Shown here: positions 11,062 to 16,978 of the stretch, piece after piece
How the letters are laid out: each line of letters opens with the position of its first letter
Numbering within the stretch: position 1 is the first letter of the stretch
UHGV virus genome: UHGV-0159506
DNA: 17,827 nt
Strand: one strand, 5' to 3'
DNA from: a virus
The notes under the pieces: generated by a model
Seen by the model: the letters and a program-made list of their open reading frames with translations, nothing else
Database searches by the model: none
Told to the model about the DNA's origin: nothing
Made by a program: the position numbers and the translations under genes

Positions 11062-12426
11062 TTAATAATCCTCTTGCCAGTCAGCACCAGCATAGTTATC
11101 AAACCGTGAGTATTGGCCGTTAAAAGCCAATCTCACCGTGCCAATTGGGCCATTTCGTTGCTTTCCGATAATTACCTCGGCAATGCCCTTCATTTCGCTA
11201 TCCGGGTGATAAACTTCGTCGCGATACAGAAACATGATCAGGTCTGCGTCCTGCTCAATTGCTCCTGATTCACGTAAATCTGAATTTACCGGTCGTTTGT
11301 CCGCACGCTGTTCAAGCGATCGATTAAGTTGTGACAATGCCACCACCGGTACTTGTAATTCCTTCGCCAACGCCTTCAGTGAGCGAGAAATCTCGGCAAT
11401 TTCCAGCGTTCGGTTATCTTGCAGCTCGGGGACGCGCATAAGTTGCAGGTAGTCGATCATAATCATGCTCAAACCACCATTTTCTTTATAAACACGACGA
11501 GCGCGGGAACGAAGCTCTGTAGGTGTCAGGGCGCTTGAGTCATCAATAAAAATATTCTGCTTGTCCAACAGAATACCCATTGCGCCAGAAACCCGCGCCC
11601 AATCCTCGTCGTTAAGTTGCCCTGTTCGAATACGAGTCTGATCAACGCGTGCAAGAGAAGCCAGTGAGCGCATCATCAGCTGGTGGCTCGGCATCTCAAG
11701 GCTAAAAACCAATACGGGCTTATCGTTACGGACTGCGGCATTTTCGACGAGATTCATCGCAAACGTGGTCTTCCCCATAGATGGGCGGGCGGCGACAATG
11801 ATGAGATCGGACGGCTGAAGCCCTGCCGTCTTCTTATTGAGATCGGTAAATCCCGTATCAAGCCCCGTTACACCATCATGTGGTCGCTGAAACAACTCTT
11901 CTATGCGAGATACCGTTGCATCGAGAATGCTGGCGATATCTTTTGGACCACTACCGCTCTTTTGTCGTTTTTCAGCTATTTCAAAAACGCGGCGCTCGGC
12001 CATATCCAGCAATTCATTGCTGCCCCTGCCATCCTGCGCATATCCAGCTTCGGCTATTTCATTTGCGACGGAAATCATTTCACGAACAACCGCGCGTTCA
12101 CGAACGATATCCGCATAAGCACAAATATTTGCCGCGCTGGGCGTGTTCTTTGACATCTCCGCAAGGTACGCAAAACCACCGGCGCGTTCTAATTTACCGT
12201 TCTGTTCAAGTGCTTCAGCAAGTGTTATCAAATCAATCGGTTTGCCATGACTTAATAACCTCTCCATCTCACTGAAAATTTCACGATGAGCACTGGTATA
12301 AAAATCATCAGCAACTATACGATCTGCAACTTCATCCCAGCGGCAGTTATCAAGCATTAAGCCACCAAGTACAGCTTGTTCTGCACTAAGGGAATTTGGC
12401 ATGGATTCAAGAGGGGATGCAGACAT
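11062..12426 (-). CDS. ban: DnaB-family replicative helicase (phage P1 Ban-like)
   Basis: Track ORF of 456 aa, co-linear and highly similar to E. coli DnaB as I recall it (AEQAVLGGLMLDN, SDLIIVAARPSMGKTTFAMN, RNGPIGTVRLAFNGQYSRFDNY). The likely start is the ATG at 12424-12426, preceded by GGTGGAG. The context (tRNA-Ile, TerB-like gene, tRNA-Thr/Asn, methyltransferase) matches my recollection of the P1 ban region. Confidence 0.9.
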   Translation of the reverse strand: MSASPLESMPNSLSAEQAVLGGLMLDNCRWDEVADRIVADDFYTSAHREIFSEMERLLSHGKPIDLITLAEALEQNGKLERAGGFAYLAEMSKNTPSAANICAYADIVRERAVVREMISVANEIAEAGYAQDGRGSNELLDMAERRVFEIAEKRQKSGSGPKDIASILDATVSRIEELFQRPHDGVTGLDTGFTDLNKKTAGLQPSDLIIVAARPSMGKTTFAMNLVENAAVRNDKPVLVFSLEMPSHQLMMRSLASLARVDQTRIRTGQLNDEDWARVSGAMGILLDKQNIFIDDSSALTPTELRSRARRVYKENGGLSMIMIDYLQLMRVPELQDNRTLEIAEISRSLKALAKELQVPVVALSQLNRSLEQRADKRPVNSDLRESGAIEQDADLIMFLYRDEVYHPDSEMKGIAEVIIGKQRNGPIGTVRLAFNGQYSRFDNYAGADWQEDY

Positions 12427-12706
12427 TAGCACTCCACCCAGGCGTGCTGAATGTCAGATATAATCGGCATACTCAAATCACTCCTAACGATATGAGTCAT
12501 CACCAGAAAATCAGGATTAATTCGCCGGACTCTTCCCGGCTGTCACACCGAATCGCCAAGATGGTGAATCCGCAGTCCGACGCTATGAACGGGGCTTGCA
12601 CATTCCGGCTACCTGGTTTGTTGCCTGAGCTAGGGGAAAGGTTACCCCTTTAACGTCACCAGACCGCTAACGACGCATGTGCCAGACGCCGTGTTACAAC
12701 CAAATA

Positions 12707-12782
12707 TGGTGGCCCCTACCGGACTTGAACCGGTGACCGTGCGATTATGAGTCGCCAGCTCTAACCACTGAGCTAAAGGGCC
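12707..12782 (-). tRNA. tRNA-Ile (anticodon CAU, lysidine type; Met cannot be fully excluded), CCA encoded
   Basis: Manually folded cloverleaf: acceptor GGCCCTT/AGGGGCC, D-arm GCTC-AGTGGTTA-GAGC, anticodon loop CTCATAA, T-arm ACCGG-TTCAAGT-CCGGT. It closely resembles E. coli ileX as I recall it. Confidence 0.8.
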
Positions 12783-12785
12783 GGA

Positions 12786-12893
12786 TTACTGTTTCCTGAG
12801 TGCTTCTATGACGCCAGCAATACCGCCTACAACTATGCCAGCAATGACAACGAGAACAATTGGATGCTTGTCAGCAAAATCCCAGAAGCCCAT
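12786..12893 (-). CDS. 35-aa hydrophobic peptide, predicted single-pass membrane protein
   Basis: Not in the track (below 60 aa). Its ATG overlaps the upstream TGA (TGATG). Translation is MGFWDFADKHPIVLVVIAGIVVGGIAGVIEALRKQ. Confidence 0.4.
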   Translation of the reverse strand: MGFWDFADKHPIVLVVIAGIVVGGIAGVIEALRKQ

Positions 12894-13057
12894 CACTGAT
12901 CCTTAGAAGCTGTTTTTAATATCGGCCATACCAATGTTACAGCTACTGCCACCAACGCCCCGTCCGATAAAACTGACAGGATTGTGCTGGTGAAATCCAC
13001 CAGCACGGACAGCAAGAGAAAACCAATGGCGATTGCGATACGTGCCTTGCTTGCCAT
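12893..13057 (-). CDS. 54-aa hydrophobic peptide, predicted membrane protein
   Basis: Not in the track. Its ATG overlaps the TerB-like gene's TAA (TAATG). Translation is MASKARIAIAIGFLLLSVLVDFTSTILSVLSDGALVAVAVTLVWPILKTASKDQ. Confidence 0.45.
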   Translation of the reverse strand: MASKARIAIAIGFLLLSVLVDFTSTILSVLSDGALVAVAVTLVWPILKTASKDQ

Positions 13058-13491
13058 TACAGATAATCTTCCACACGAAGACCTAAACGACGGCCTACTT
13101 CTTCCAGTACTTTGTGTTCTGCTGGCTCGATTTCACCGTCCGCTTCTGCAATTGTCAGCATGTTAACGAATACTTCTTCCGCTTCTTTTGGATCGTTTTT
13201 GATATCTTCAATTTCGCGAAGGATATTCATGCGACCAACACGGAAGCCAGCTTCCAGTTGCTCGGTAAAGCGGGTAATTGTTGCAGTAATTTCGTTACCA
13301 AAATGACTAAGACGCGGATTAGAGCGGACAAGCTGATCAAGTTTCGCTGTTTCTTCTTTTTCGATTTCACCATCAGCGGCAGACACCAACAAACAGCCAC
13401 CGATACTGGCCTCCATCAGATCGCGATTCTCAACTTTTTTCAGCTCTACTTTTGCAGAAGCGACTTTCTTGCCGAACAATTTACCGAACAT
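13057..13491 (-). CDS. tciA: TerB-like (tellurite-resistance TerB domain) protein, P1 TciA-like
   Basis: Track ORF of 144 aa with ATG start and GAGGG SD. It has the two TerB-like acidic ADG-containing helices (LLVSAADGEIEKEE, LTIAEADGEIEPAEHKVLEEVGRRLGL). Confidence 0.75.
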   Translation of the reverse strand: MFGKLFGKKVASAKVELKKVENRDLMEASIGGCLLVSAADGEIEKEETAKLDQLVRSNPRLSHFGNEITATITRFTEQLEAGFRVGRMNILREIEDIKNDPKEAEEVFVNMLTIAEADGEIEPAEHKVLEEVGRRLGLRVEDYL

Positions 13492-14241
13492 TGGTTATCC
13501 CTCAATAAAAGTGACATATTTATTAGATTGCGGTGCCGGGTTCCTCCCGGTGTCCTTTGGCTGGTTATCCACCGTGGACGGGGAAACAAGGAGAAATGAA
13601 TGGACTGATATAACCATTTCCCCGCGTGCGCTTAGCCGCATTCACCGCAACGGAAAGAGCATTCTTGGTGGACCTGTAGATTGGGATATGAACCCGTTAC
13701 AGGAGAATGCTCTTACCTTTTACGTGCTCCGTTTCGTGGAGCTAACGGCGGGTGATCGGGCCGCACCAGACTGGACTTATTTCAGCGTTATGCTCATGCC
13801 AGAGAATCAAACTGTGATGGTCGGTGCTGAACTCCGACACAGGGTTGTAGCAAGCCCCACAAAGCGCGCACTACTGTAGTTGCGGCACATCAGCCTGTGC
13901 ATTCACCACAATGTTGAGAACACTGGTTGTCACGCTGCAACGCAACATTTATTCGTAGATTGGGATATGACCCCGTTACGCCAGTGTTCTCAACGTTGTA
14001 GTGCCGGTTACGGTTCCGGCCAGGCCTCTTCCTCAACGGGGTGTTCTCCATACGGACTACCGTTTATTGGTCGTTCCTGCGGTTTATGTTGTGAAGCCAG
14101 ATGCTTATCTTCTGGTTGCTTCAAAGAGCTGCACTTCATCACAACGGTAAGAGCACTGATACGGTTGGTTTTTGCCTCCGGATCGACTTGCGTCTTGTGT
14201 GCTGGCCCGCTCATCGCCAATGCTCTTACCTGTTGTGTTGG

Positions 14242-14314
14242 TGCCGATTAACGGACTCGAACCGCTGACATCCTGCTTACAAGGCAGGCGCTCTACCAAC
14301 TGAGCTAAACCGGC
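14242..14314 (-). tRNA. tRNA-Thr (anticodon UGU)
   Basis: Manual fold: acceptor GCCGGTT/AATCGGC, D-arm GCTC-AGTTGGTA-GAGC, anticodon stem CCTGC/GCAGG with loop CTTGTAA, T-arm with TTCGAGT loop. It is separated from tRNA-Asn by about 2 nt. Confidence 0.8.
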
Positions 14315-14316
14315 AT

Positions 14317-14392
14317 TGGCGATGGTGGATGGATTTGAACCATCGACCCGTTGATTAACAGTCAACCGCTCTAACCACTGAGCTACACCATC
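14317..14392 (-). tRNA. tRNA-Asn (anticodon GUU), CCA encoded
   Basis: Manual fold: acceptor GATGGTG/CACCATC, D-arm GCTC-AGTGGTTA-GAGC, anticodon stem GTTGA/TCAAC with loop CTGTTAA, T-loop TTCAAAT, discriminator G followed by CCA. Confidence 0.8.
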
Positions 14393-14856
14393 ACTTGCCG
14401 GGTACGTCTCCGGCGAGGGCTTCCACCTCCGTATGCTTTTCGGCGCACCGCGCCCTGACTGCAATTCGGTAACAGGGGATGCATAACCCTGGCTTCCAGC
14501 GTGATTAGCGCCTTCAGCATGACGGGATATACCCGTAAATTCGTGGAACTGTACCCAAAGTGCTGTTAAGCACCGCTGTTACGCTGAAAAGAAGACGCAA
14601 CAGGAAAGGACGCTGACCAACAGATGGCCCCTTCTCGTTCATCTGGTTAATCACACCAGCGCCCTTACCTGTTGTGCCTCCCCGTTCCCTAATACACAGA
14701 CGGGGACACTCTGCGGTCGATTTTTTGACGGGGGACGACTCATACCCCGTGGCATCTGGCTTCTTAGGCCGCTACCATCATCAGATCATCGTTTGCATTT
14801 ACTTTAATGGTCAGTTTCTAAACCGCCGCAAAGTCGCTAACCATGACGAAAACCCT

Positions 14857-14883
14857 GAAAAAAACGCCCACCCGAAGATGGGC
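14857..14883 (-). terminator. rho-independent terminator within the leader upstream of the tRNA/helicase operon
   Basis: On the minus strand: GCCCAUC-UUCG-GGUGGGC (7-bp stem with one G-U pair, UUCG tetraloop) followed by GUUUUUUUC. It lies about 165 nt downstream of the operator-controlled promoter. Confidence 0.6.
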
Positions 14884-15047
14884 AAACTGGAAGCTCGTAA
14901 CGCACTTCGGTGTTGCCACTTAGGCGTATGGTCAACCTGGCAACTCGGCGTCATGAGGGGGAAGGAGTCACTACCCCGCCATACTTGCCGCCGCGCCTGT
15001 CGCGGCTAACAGCTAAATCGCTCTATAAATCACGATTCATTGAGGCG

Positions 15048-15077
15048 ATATTACACTAATAAATTTATTAGAGCAAT
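15048..15077 (-). promoter_or_regulatory. sigma70-type promoter overlapped by a palindromic pair of C1 operator sites
   Basis: The minus strand reads ATTGCTCTAATAAATTT, a 17/17 match to the P1 C1 operator consensus, at 15061-15077. An overlapping 15/17 site lies on the plus strand at 15050-15066. The -35 TTGCTC, a 17-nt spacer and the -10 TAATAT are read off the minus strand. The methyltransferase stop codon is embedded in the operator. Confidence 0.6.
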
Positions 15078-16978
15078 ATGCCTAAAACGTCATGAGCAAC
15101 ACCTCGAGTGTCCCCCTTACAAGACACAGAACGTCTGGCAAAGAGAGGTTCCACTCTGAAGCCACTGTCCTGATAAAGCTCTCTGATGTTTGGCGCGCCA
15201 CTGTTAGTAATGAGTACCTTTGCACCTCGGCGATGAGCATCCGTCAACAGAGACACCAGGCGTTTTTGCTCTTCAAACTTAAAGTCATGACCGGAATAGT
15301 TCGTGAATCCCTCTGTATTTGGAAGCGGTTCATACGGCGGATCGCAAAAGATGACATCTCCTTCTCCGGCAGCTTCAATCACCGCTGCAAAATCACCGCA
15401 TACAAACTCAGACCGCCCTTCCGCACCGAGGAAGGCTTCCATCTCCTGTAATGGAAAATGCGTAGACTTATACTTCCCATACCCTACATTGAACTCACCG
15501 GCCTGGTTGTAGCGCGTCAATCCATTAAAACAATGTCGGTTCAGGAACAAAAACGCCGCTGCGCGATGTAAATCATCATAGACTTGTTTGTTAAACGCAT
15601 TCCGTACTGCCAGGAATCCCTCCTGGGTGTTGTAGTCCAAGAAGAAACGATGTGCCAGAGTGATAAGTGAATGCGCCTCGCGTTGCAGAGTCTTGTAAAA
15701 GTTAATCAGGTCAGCATTCACATCATTTAGCAGATTTTCCTGGTATCCGGCATTCATGAAGACAGCTCCGCCACCGACGAAAGGTTCAATCAGGCGCTTC
15801 CCTTCTGGCAAATAGCGAAAGATTTGTTCCAGAACACCAAATTTTCCACCAGCCCATTTGAATATGGACCGTTCGAATTCTGCCGCTGGTTTAACTTTTC
15901 GCTCTTTTGTTTCACTCCCTTCATTCTGCCGACATGCAGCCTTGGTAATCCGATCGCCAATCCAGCGCATTACTGGTATTGCCATACTATTGCCGATCGC
16001 TTTGTAACGCGGTCCGTCAGCTGCAAGCATCGCGGCCTCTTCTTCGCTTAAATCAGGATAGTTATTGCGAAGGTATGCCAGTTCATCTGAAGAAACTTTT
16101 TTACGCTTTTCCGTAGGGATCAACGTATGCCCATCAGGAAAACCTTGCAGCCTTTCACATTCGACAGGGGTAAGACGGCGTATTCTACCGTCGCCGAGCA
16201 ATACAATTGGTGCTTCATGGTTACATGTCAAAGTTGGTGCCGAATTATCGGTTTTTATCTCAGCCCCTCCTTGCCCATGTGCCATGGCAACTATGTTTGT
16301 ATCATCGCAAGATCTGATAGCGATGTTTGAAGTATATCTGGTAGTTTCCTTCCCCTCGCCTCTGCTCGGCGCAATATCCCGGCGCACGCCTTCGAACTCA
16401 AAAAGTACCGTTGCGGGATCGAGGTCTGTTCGAGCACTTGCGACAACAAACACGCGTCGGCGTCGTTGTGCCACTCCGAAGTATTGGGCATCAAGGATTC
16501 TCCAGGCCACTTTTCGCTGCGGTCCATAAATACAACCACACTGCGGCCACTTTGGAGCATGGCAACCGGTTTTGCCATCCCACCGCCAGAACGCGTTACT
16601 TTTTCCTGATTCAGGTCGATCACCTGGTTCAAATGGCGCATCTTCTCCAGCCAATCCGGCAAGGAAACATCCGAAGGCGTTATCTGCCGATGACAAGACT
16701 CCTGGGACATTTTCCCAGACAATAACGGCTGGTTTGAGAAATGACTCAGCCCGTTTGTCGTCAATTGCATTTGCAAGCTCCACATACTTTAAAGTTAGCG
16801 CGCCACGCTCATCATCAAGCCCACCACGTAATCCAGCGATACTGAATGCCTGACAGTTATGGACCACCGCACCATTGAGGATATAGGAATGATCACCTTC
16901 GACTTCTATGTTGTATACAGTATCTAGGCCTACCGATTTAAACTCTTTGACTGTTCGTAAAAGCATTCCGTGAGCCAA
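15068..16978 (-). CDS. dmt: bifunctional DNA methyltransferase: C5-cytosine domain (motifs IV-X) fused to Dam-like N6-adenine domain; the first ~41 codons are the intein C-terminal segment
   Basis: Track ORF of 636 aa. C5 motifs present: IV (CQAFSIAG), VI (ENVPG), VIII (QRRRRVF), IX (RLTPVECERLQGFPD), X (IGNSMAIPV). Dam motifs present: KWAGGK, EPFVGGGAVF, DPPY. Motifs I-III are absent because the N-terminal part lies upstream of the intein. As drawn, the ORF begins at a TTG four codons after an in-frame TAA; the ATG five codons in (MLLRTVKEF) is a plausible start. Confidence 0.8.
   Translation of the reverse strand: MAHGMLLRTVKEFKSVGLDTVYNIEVEGDHSYILNGAVVHNCQAFSIAGLRGGLDDERGALTLKYVELANAIDDKRAESFLKPAVIVWENVPGVLSSADNAFGCFLAGLAGEDAPFEPGDRPESGKSNAFWRWDGKTGCHAPKWPQCGCIYGPQRKVAWRILDAQYFGVAQRRRRVFVVASARTDLDPATVLFEFEGVRRDIAPSRGEGKETTRYTSNIAIRSCDDTNIVAMAHGQGGAEIKTDNSAPTLTCNHEAPIVLLGDGRIRRLTPVECERLQGFPDGHTLIPTEKRKKVSSDELAYLRNNYPDLSEEEAAMLAADGPRYKAIGNSMAIPVMRWIGDRITKAACRQNEGSETKERKVKPAAEFERSIFKWAGGKFGVLEQIFRYLPEGKRLIEPFVGGGAVFMNAGYQENLLNDVNADLINFYKTLQREAHSLITLAHRFFLDYNTQEGFLAVRNAFNKQVYDDLHRAAAFLFLNRHCFNGLTRYNQAGEFNVGYGKYKSTHFPLQEMEAFLGAEGRSEFVCGDFAAVIEAAGEGDVIFCDPPYEPLPNTEGFTNYSGHDFKFEEQKRLVSLLTDAHRRGAKVLITNSGAPNIRELYQDSGFRVEPLFARRSVSCKGDTRGVAHDVLGILL

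Follow-up and report, generated by a model that had tools for sequence, protein, structure and literature searches.

The small RNA DicF arises from the ydfABC-dicF-dicB locus of Qin-type prophages through early intrinsic termination and RNase E trimming; read-through expresses dicB, and RNase III releases a further species of DicF from the read-through transcripts (review PMC9438474). We have analyzed a leader on the minus strand of UHGV virus genome UHGV-0159506, the whole stretch of 17,827 nucleotides (nt) being referred to here as the window, that shares with the dicF locus a structured element of ~82% identity, a tail and terminator in the same position, and genes downstream that would be reached by read-through. 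The P1-type locus differs in that its tail is not DicF and in that it lies at the 5' end of an operon, under a C1 operator, and not in a 3' untranslated region. Judged by its identity over 14200-15300 (98.3% with P7 and 97.0% with P1), the window represents a phage or plasmid prophage of the P1/P7 type, and its elements corresponding to promoter P1ban and operator Oban-ab (Op72ab) of P1 are identical to them and occupy the same relative positions, with no difference found. The P1 GenBank record already contains the promoter, both operators, and a "dicF-like region", and C1 repression and initiation at P1ban in vivo are taken from that annotation. To our knowledge, the pseudoknotted element, its pairing with modular tails, and its prevalence appear not to have been described previously. 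The original prediction, which was made by a model from the letters alone, missed the P1 annotation, the conserved pseudoknotted element shared with Qin-type prophages, and a unit related to transfer-messenger RNA (tmRNA) that lies immediately beyond the leader.

Two other phage systems share features of this arrangement. In bacteriophage lambda, the promoter PR' is followed by a leader of ~190 nt, the 6S RNA, and by a strong terminator, tR', that precedes the operon and is overridden by Q. The P1 leader shares this promoter-leader-terminator plan, but PR' is constitutive, whereas the ban promoter of P1 is repressor controlled, and no Q or qut is known there. The put RNAs of HK022 are processive antiterminators that act in cis, and their factor-independent effect depends on the zinc-binding domain of the beta' subunit. 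A put RNA is ~70 nt long and consists of two stems plus a short triplex (PMC9378689). It resembles the structured part of the leader in being a structured nascent RNA located between a promoter and the first terminator, with no annotated N-like protein, and the analogy is a functional one only.

The C1-controlled leader and its structured element

The features of the leader region are as follows.

15061-15077, minus strand: C1 operator Oban-a (Op72a), a 17/17 match to ATTGCTCTAATAAATTT, annotated in P1 and P7
15050-15066, plus strand: C1 operator Oban-b (Op72b), a 15/17 match, annotated in P1 and P7
15048-15076, minus strand: promoter P1ban, with -35 TTGCTC at 15076-15071, a 17-nt spacer, and -10 TAATAT at 15053-15048
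15070-15068, minus strand: stop codon TAA of dmt/dam, inside operator Oban-a
14858-15041, minus strand: predicted primary leader, ~184 nt, from the promoter and terminator positions
14912-15006, minus strand: conserved pseudoknotted element, ~95 nt, ~82% identical to the DicF-upstream element (nhmmer E = 1e-27)
15006-14990, minus strand: element hairpin, from the fold test
14984-14979 with 14931-14926, minus strand: element helix P2, the 3' strand of which lies in the P4 loop and forms the pseudoknot
14978-14957, minus strand: element hairpin P3, from the fold test
14944-14938 with 14918-14912, minus strand: element helix P4, from the fold test
14885-14911, minus strand: tail ACCGAAGUGCGUUACGAGCUUCCAGUU, 27 nt, at the position of the DicF body, a candidate seed region
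14858-14884, minus strand: intrinsic terminator with a 7-8 bp stem, a UUCG loop, and U7

The conserved element is widespread. Of 5426 complete Escherichia coli genomes, 4433 carry a chromosomal element to which window positions 15005-14908 are ~82% identical, with a median of two copies and a maximum of nine. Its site in K-12 and BL21 is the Qin prophage, where it has ydfC on one side and dicB on the other and directly adjoins the 5' side of DicF, as it also does in phage Tritos. When the fold was applied to 36 distinct sequences, 92.6% of cells were paired, against 33-55% when the partners were slid; a compensatory change from U-A to C-G in P2 is the exact difference between P1 and the window, a change of the same kind in P4 occurs in seven sequences, and Qin-type copies possess one more helix, on the outside. 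The element matched no Rfam family either at the gathering score or at an E value of up to 10 over 14380-15100, and the latter search returned no DicF, C4/IsrK, or riboswitch match.

Copies were collected from IMG/VR and from phage records, at least 146 in all. The tails among the 146 copies listed comprise 89 canonical DicF sequences, 41 P1-type tails with their hairpin, and 16 other short tails with other GC hairpins, and in every one of the 146 a run of at least five T residues lies no more than 106 nt 3' of the element. Since at least 35 distinct tail modules follow a constant element among these copies, the element would work independently of the tail sequence, and the locus is, on comparison of these sequences, modular: a constant structured element joined to an exchangeable tail with an intrinsic terminator. 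In two loci (L154 and L186) the tails of the DicF-upstream element are unrelated to DicF, and Stx2c-converting phages match the element only; possibly, such tails are new small RNAs that occupy the place of DicF in pathogenic E. coli. In phage D6 (locus L242, 2140-2270, minus strand) the DicF-type element is absent, and its place is taken by a long hairpin, AAGAAAGAAGCCGACU...AGUCGGCUUCUUUCUU, together with a short tail of another sequence; the upstream leader of this phage is unrelated, yet the terminator hairpin, the U-run, and everything downstream, including the tmRNA-related unit, are the same.

The "dicF-like region" of the P1 GenBank record maps to about 14848-14950 in the window. Because the element sits 5' of DicF in K-12 and BL21, the homology of the P1 leader is to the DicF-upstream element and not to DicF itself, the place of which is occupied in P1 by the stretch 14911-14858. 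The DicF model RF00039, which reaches 76.7 bits in K-12 (at 3122-3173 of locus L003) and 72.5 bits in BL21, had no match over 14380-15100 even at E = 10. The tail was also considered, and rejected, as a functional homologue of DicF: its duplex with the ftsZ initiation region was calculated at -18.2 kcal/mol, a value equaled by 124 of 300 shuffles in a test that is insensitive, DicF itself giving 31 of 300. Complementarity of the tail to ftsZ is thus unremarkable, and an action on cell division like that of DicF is not supported.

With regard to the promoter, the perfect 17/17 operator and the overlapping 15/17 site of the original prediction were confirmed by the operator scan and by the P1 and P7 annotation. 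They overlap by 6 bp in opposite orientation and form a bivalent operator over the -35 and -10 hexamers. The window holds five operator matches with no more than three mismatches, against 0.07 expected by chance, the other C1-operator-like sites being at 5199-5215 (plus strand, two mismatches), 1526-1542 (plus strand, three), and 1575-1591 (minus strand, three). The hexamers and the 17-nt spacer that had been proposed proved to be those of annotated P1ban, but the term "near-consensus" was too generous because each hexamer matches the sigma-70 consensus at four of six positions and the consensus promoter scanner did not list P1ban. The methyltransferase stop codon does lie within Oban-a, as had been observed.

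Transcription is predicted from the -10 hexamer to start at ~15041, and the distance from there to the end of the U-run gives a leader of ~184 nt (~180 nt in P1) in place of the ~165 nt first estimated. Minus-strand open reading frames (ORFs) within it are limited to 32-47 amino acids and cross the terminator, in agreement with the earlier view that no convincing ORF is present. The UUCG-tetraloop hairpin with its U7 tract was likewise borne out: the stem, GCCCAUC/GGUGGGC, occupies 14883-14866 and the U7 tract 14864-14858, its folding energy is -12.8 kcal/mol, it is the best terminator-like site in 12400-15400, and it stays separate in the minimum free energy fold of the whole leader. Conservation of the hairpin in related phages had been proposed as a check, and the hairpin was found to be identical in all 41 P1-type copies listed, where it is followed by T6-T8, and to be present also in phage D6.

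Termination, read-through, and competing explanations

The ban promoters annotated in P1, P1ban and P2ban, are found only at the operator, upstream of the terminator, and a consensus promoter scan found no other promoter-like site on the minus strand down to ban; read-through of the terminator is therefore required in P1. The same argument applies to Tritos-type phages, in which the DicF terminator precedes dicB, exonuclease VIII, xis, and int and an N-like gene is not annotated.

We place at about even chances the proposal, drawn from these comparisons, that the locus is a DicF-type dual-output leader at the head of the C1-repressed ban operon. On release of C1 from the bivalent operator, RNA polymerase with sigma-70 would start at ~15041, and its first product would be the ~95-nt pseudoknotted element, followed by the 27-nt tail and the strong intrinsic terminator. 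Polymerases stopping there would release a leader RNA of ~184 nt, which RNase E could, by analogy with DicF, trim to the tail, the hairpin, and the U-tail; polymerases reading through would transcribe the tmRNA-related unit, a cassette hairpin, tRNA-Asn, tRNA-Thr, tciABC, tRNA-Ile, and ban. The original prediction offered a short RNA and a terminator that must be read through as alternatives. The anatomy fits both, and comparison with the dicF locus suggests that both outcomes occur. As to the element itself, we favor, at somewhat less than even odds, the view that it acts in cis in a manner functionally like put, letting polymerase pass the terminator that follows; the constant order of element and terminator, and the conservation of the element whatever the sequence of the tail, speak for such a role.

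Several observations weigh against this reading of the leader and must be set beside it. The covariation in the element derives from few events, its mean column identity is 84%, and pairs with double changes are no more frequent than in shuffles; as this degree of identity leaves few independent events, the fold should be regarded as supported, not proven. Phage D6 retains the terminator and the operon without the element. RNase E prefers to cut at RN↓WUU; a site of this type, CAG↓UUUG, is present, and cleavage there would leave the hairpin alone, so that a seed-bearing small RNA is not assured. The element (~95-125 nt, with a pseudoknot) is larger than put and differently built, and its membership of the put family was rejected: it has four to five helices where put has two stems, and no sequence similarity to put was seen, an nhmmer profile of the element finding nothing in HK022 24-34 kb, the immunity region, at an E value of up to 10. 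In addition, transcript ends, partial termination, processing, and the role of the element are all read from the sequence.

The element might alternatively be a platform for processing by RNase E or RNase III and for stability, its compact fold directing a cut immediately 3' of itself, fixing the 5' end of a short RNA and shielding the RNA upstream, ahead of a terminator that is simply leaky, an explanation that we regard as rather unlikely. Its attraction lies in the position of the element, always directly 5' of the tail module, and in two precedents: RNase E cuts the 5' end of DicF a few nt 3' of the element (PMC9438474; the position can be seen in the sequence), and stem-loops guide RNase E on MicL and direct its precise processing (review PMC9438474). 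However, the P1 promoter could set the 5' end of the RNA without any processing, yet the element has been kept at ~82% between unrelated flanks, and a multihelix pseudoknot exceeds what guidance of RNase E is known to require. Alternatively, the element could itself be a stable structured RNA acting in trans, for instance by binding protein, its synthesis ending at any terminator that comes next, with DicF and the P1 tail as secondary additions; its conservation far above that of the tails (35 variants), its supported fold, and its presence, often in several copies, in 4433 of the 5426 genomes would suit such an RNA. As no partner is known, no Rfam family matches, and DicF, a tail module, has documented functions of its own (PMC9438474), we judge this improbable.

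Two further roles for the terminator fare less well. The hairpin and U7 tract could terminate or insulate the upstream dmt unit, the leader having no RNA function, and they do form the first terminator past the dmt stop codon, ~185 nt downstream; we consider this very improbable, for it leaves unexplained both a covarying element common to prophages that lack dmt and the constant pairing of element with terminator. Riboswitches, too, join a conserved structured domain to a variable terminator downstream, and the original prediction had raised attenuation; the element would then be a sensor and the hairpin an expression platform, linked by alternative pairing. Among the explanations weighed here we give this the least credence. 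The tails and terminators of the copies are unrelated and the element is constant, so that no conserved alternative pairing is possible; by eye, none was seen in the leader of the window; the minimum free energy fold keeps the hairpin apart; and there is no Rfam riboswitch match. The conservation of the element independently of the tail sequence speaks against a classical attenuator that works by alternative pairing, which is not supported. The dual-output leader is the preferred reading.

A tmRNA-related unit beyond the terminator

Transfer-messenger RNAs are encoded in about 2.3% of phage genomes, and complete phage tmRNAs and prophage ssrA fragments are known (PMC9004378). The stretch beyond the leader terminator is rich in GC hairpins, as the original prediction stated, and contains an unannotated tmRNA-related unit, an identity that the prediction did not recognize. 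The features of the unit are as follows.

14853-14679, minus strand: tmRNA-related unit, beginning three nt after the U-run of the leader
14819-14853, minus strand: 5' arm of the unit, antisense to E. coli tmRNA nt ~68-107, with blocks GUUUUCGUC, GCGAC, and UUUGCGGC
14764-14796, minus strand: tag frame ANDDLMMVAA and stop (GCA AAC GAT GAT CTG ATG ATG GTA GCG GCC TAA)
14776-14751, minus strand: helix-5-like hairpin with the stop codon in the loop
14749-14716, minus strand: pseudoknot a, H-type
14715-14679, minus strand: pseudoknot b, H-type

The unit shares with tmRNA (SsrA, also known in two-piece and phage-encoded forms) a GCA resume codon, AUA at -6 to -4, a tag of 10 codons, a stop codon in the loop of helix 5, and pseudoknots. 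It differs in having no tRNA-like domain, in being missed by ARAGORN at default settings and by Rfam, and in its 5' arm, which is antisense and not homologous to host tmRNA nt ~68-107. The resume context, AUAAAU/GCA, keeps the A-U-A of E. coli tmRNA (AUAGUC/GCA), and the tag may be compared with ANDENYALAA of E. coli. The tag frame has no start codon, and an in-frame TAG stands eight codons upstream. In all 127 copies listed the frame is exactly 10 codons plus stop, whereas the other two frames differ in length; at least 17 distinct tag peptides were found (ANDDVVLMAA, ANEEMYLAVA, and ANDEQFLAVA among them), and the last codons vary synonymously. None of seven tag peptides occurred in the full texts searched, a search outside which most subscription journals fall.

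When the unit was scanned pairwise for covariation, clade effects dominated the result, and explicit structures were tested instead for that reason. Over 61 distinct sequences, 91.5% of cells were paired, against 34-45% when slid. Compensatory changes occurred in 17 of 25 pairs, a count reached by none of 500 shuffles; all four pseudoknot stems contain such changes, and helix 5 covaries between G-C and A-U at 32/28. The IMG/VR search pattern for the unit, GCGAYTWTGCGG...ATGCAAACGA, fixes part of the sequence, so that those blocks are invariant in part because of the pattern itself; a pattern-free blastn search recovers the same family.

A permissive Rfam scan gave tmRNA_permuted at 24.1 bits against a gathering score of 47 (E = 0.007, in a small search), centered on the tag frame, and beta_tmRNA at a subthreshold 14.1 bits against 84; at the gathering score no tmRNA model matched in the unit. 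ARAGORN at default settings reported no tmRNA in the window or in 242 related loci (2.1 Mb). A tRNA-like domain, comprising an acceptor stem with G3-U70, a T-arm, and a 3' CCA, was found neither by motif search in six representative loci nor on inspection of the flanks, and the same motif search in those loci did not find a complement of the 5' block of the unit. Two ways of completing the molecule were rejected: the "tRNA domains" that ARAGORN proposes at an 80% threshold lie within dmt or within the leader and are implausible, and the cassettes with T-arms that lie near some units have closed stems, lack G3-U70 and a free CCA, and are absent from the window.

The 5' arm was compared with the tmRNA of E. 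coli K-12, the single host tmRNA used throughout. The region against which it is antisense, UAAAAAGCCGCAAAAAAUAGUCGCAAACGACGAAAACUA, takes in pseudoknot 1 with its 3' strand only, then the linker, and then the resume codon and codons 1-6 of the tag. Antisense local alignment of 44 distinct arms gave a median of 16 (z = 5.4), a score typically reached by 0 of 200 shuffles; the possibility that the arm is a sense homologue of the 5' tRNA-like half of tmRNA was rejected because the sense median, 8 (z = -0.4), is background. The predicted duplex with the host segment has a median of -32 kcal/mol, compared with -19.5 for the equivalent segment of the unit itself, and an intramolecular alternative, in which the arm pairs with the resume region of the unit itself, is much weaker and was discarded, the host segment being better in 38 of 38 arms. 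Because the arm matches GAC GAA AAC of the host and the tags have diverged (GAU GAU or GAA GAA), selection to pair with the host RNA can be argued. The family looks, from its sequence, designed to pair with host tmRNA while bearing a tag frame of its own.

These properties lead us to propose, as a possibility that falls well short of an even chance, that the phage RNA binds to host tmRNA, covers the tag frame of the host, and offers its own, a form of tag swapping by a hybrid two-RNA tmRNA. The duplex of arm and tmRNA would replace pseudoknot 1 and bring the phage resume codon and tag beside the tRNA-like domain of the host, and in P1 the leader terminator would gate expression of the unit. 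We regard tag swapping as the most economical reading because it accommodates the absence of a tRNA-like domain, the direction of the arm against host tmRNA, and a tag that is constrained and translatable. The unit might instead be a pure inhibitor or decoy of tmRNA, or possess a tRNA-like partner that has escaped detection. Phage RNAs that pair with host regulatory RNAs have a precedent in AgvB and AsxR, anti-small RNAs of enterohemorrhagic E. coli prophages that act as short sponges of Hfq-dependent small RNAs. The unit shares this concept and differs in that its target would be tmRNA and that it carries a tag frame of its own. In the literature searched we found nothing relevant on phage anti-tmRNA or tmRNA-like RNAs, and an earlier description may still exist.

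Homologues of the unit were present in 258 phage records, with hosts that include Klebsiella, Salmonella, Escherichia, Serratia, and Cronobacter, and these phages of enterobacteria include P1-like phages, Ackermannviridae (ViI-like), N4-like Schitoviridae, T1-like Drexlerviridae, and lambdoid phages. In lambdoid phages (HK633 and prophage locus L005) the unit lies between Q/PR' and the lysis genes. It occurs in 787 of 5426 E. coli genomes, in which it is never annotated, and is usually first in a same-strand cluster of tRNA genes. Among the loci inspected, it begins at or shortly past an intrinsic terminator in L005, L010, and L014 and in the P1 type, including D6.

The surrounding operon and the meaning of the locus

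On the minus strand the order is dmt/dam, leader, tRNA-Asn, tRNA-Thr, tciABC homologues, tRNA-Ile (CAU), and ban. At the gathering score, Rfam reports three tRNAs only in the whole window. The remaining features are as follows.

15068-16978, minus strand: dmt/dam ORF, from the ORF list
14598-14674, minus strand: cassette hairpin CAACAGGUAAGGGCGCUGG...UCAGCGUCCUUUCCUGUUG, 18 bp, with a boxA-like 3' strand
14317-14392, minus strand: tRNA-Asn, first tRNA of the operon (ARAGORN and Rfam)
14239-14314, minus strand: tRNA-Thr, second tRNA of the operon (ARAGORN and Rfam)
14236-14140 and ~13715-13650, minus strand: further cassette hairpins of the same family
12707-12782, minus strand: tRNA-Ile (CAU), labeled tRNA-Met (CAU) by ARAGORN and tRNA-Ile (ile2, lysidine type) in P1 and P7
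11062-12432, minus strand: ban, from the ORF list and the P1 and P7 annotation

The cassette hairpins form a family with a closing stem of the form CAACAGGUAAGrGCA...UGCUCUUwCC and diverse apical inserts; at least 48 variants were found among the 146 cassette copies listed, and the stem covaries. The 3' strand, UGCUCUUU or UGCUCUUA, is one that we take to equal the boxA core. Matches to Rfam microRNA families in 14380-15100 coincide with the 18-bp cassette hairpin and were set aside as chance matches. A hairpin of the GGUGAAUGCGGCUAAGCGCACGCGG type often follows cassettes (13650-13620 and 13908-13880 in the window) and also follows DicF in Qin (locus L003, ~3185-3220). In the lambdoid prophage L005 (2850-3000), an array of cassette and unit stands right after the terminator that directly follows the Q gene, and in the viral contigs L010 and L014 such an array likewise stands right after an intrinsic terminator. 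In P1 (L001) and D6 (L242) the cassette after tRNA-Thr has an acceptor-like stem, a D-arm-like hairpin, and the canonical T-arm GGGUUCGAAUCCC, with no anticodon arm; the P7-like window has an unrelated insert after tRNA-Thr, at a place where the opposite strand of P1 carries the annotated gene plp.

The stretch 14597-14393 (minus strand, ~200 nt), which separates the cassette hairpin from tRNA-Asn, contains many hairpins and is 93% conserved in D6; it is without an ORF, and no family could be assigned to it. A plus-strand ORF with a GTG start at 14674-15009 (111 amino acids) corresponds to hypothetical proteins annotated in some P1-like records. As it is antisense to covarying RNA structures and lacks annotation in P1 and P7, it is probably spurious, and we rejected it as a gene.

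In summary, between its C1 switch and its tRNA and ban genes P1 carries what appears to be an RNA module of the DicF type, together with a strong terminator, and because the terminator separates the C1 switch from ban, expression of the replicative helicase after induction would depend on passing it. The leader terminator thus offers a concrete, testable control point in a very well-studied phage. The element adjoins the classic small RNA DicF in most E. coli genomes, and we found for it no curated family and no assigned function; since it is always paired with a terminator inside an operon, it is a candidate antiterminator of a second, protein-independent kind. The tmRNA-related unit, if real, would be the first case known to us of a virus rewriting the ribosome-rescue tag, and it would explain how an RNA that codes for such a tag escaped the tmRNA finders.

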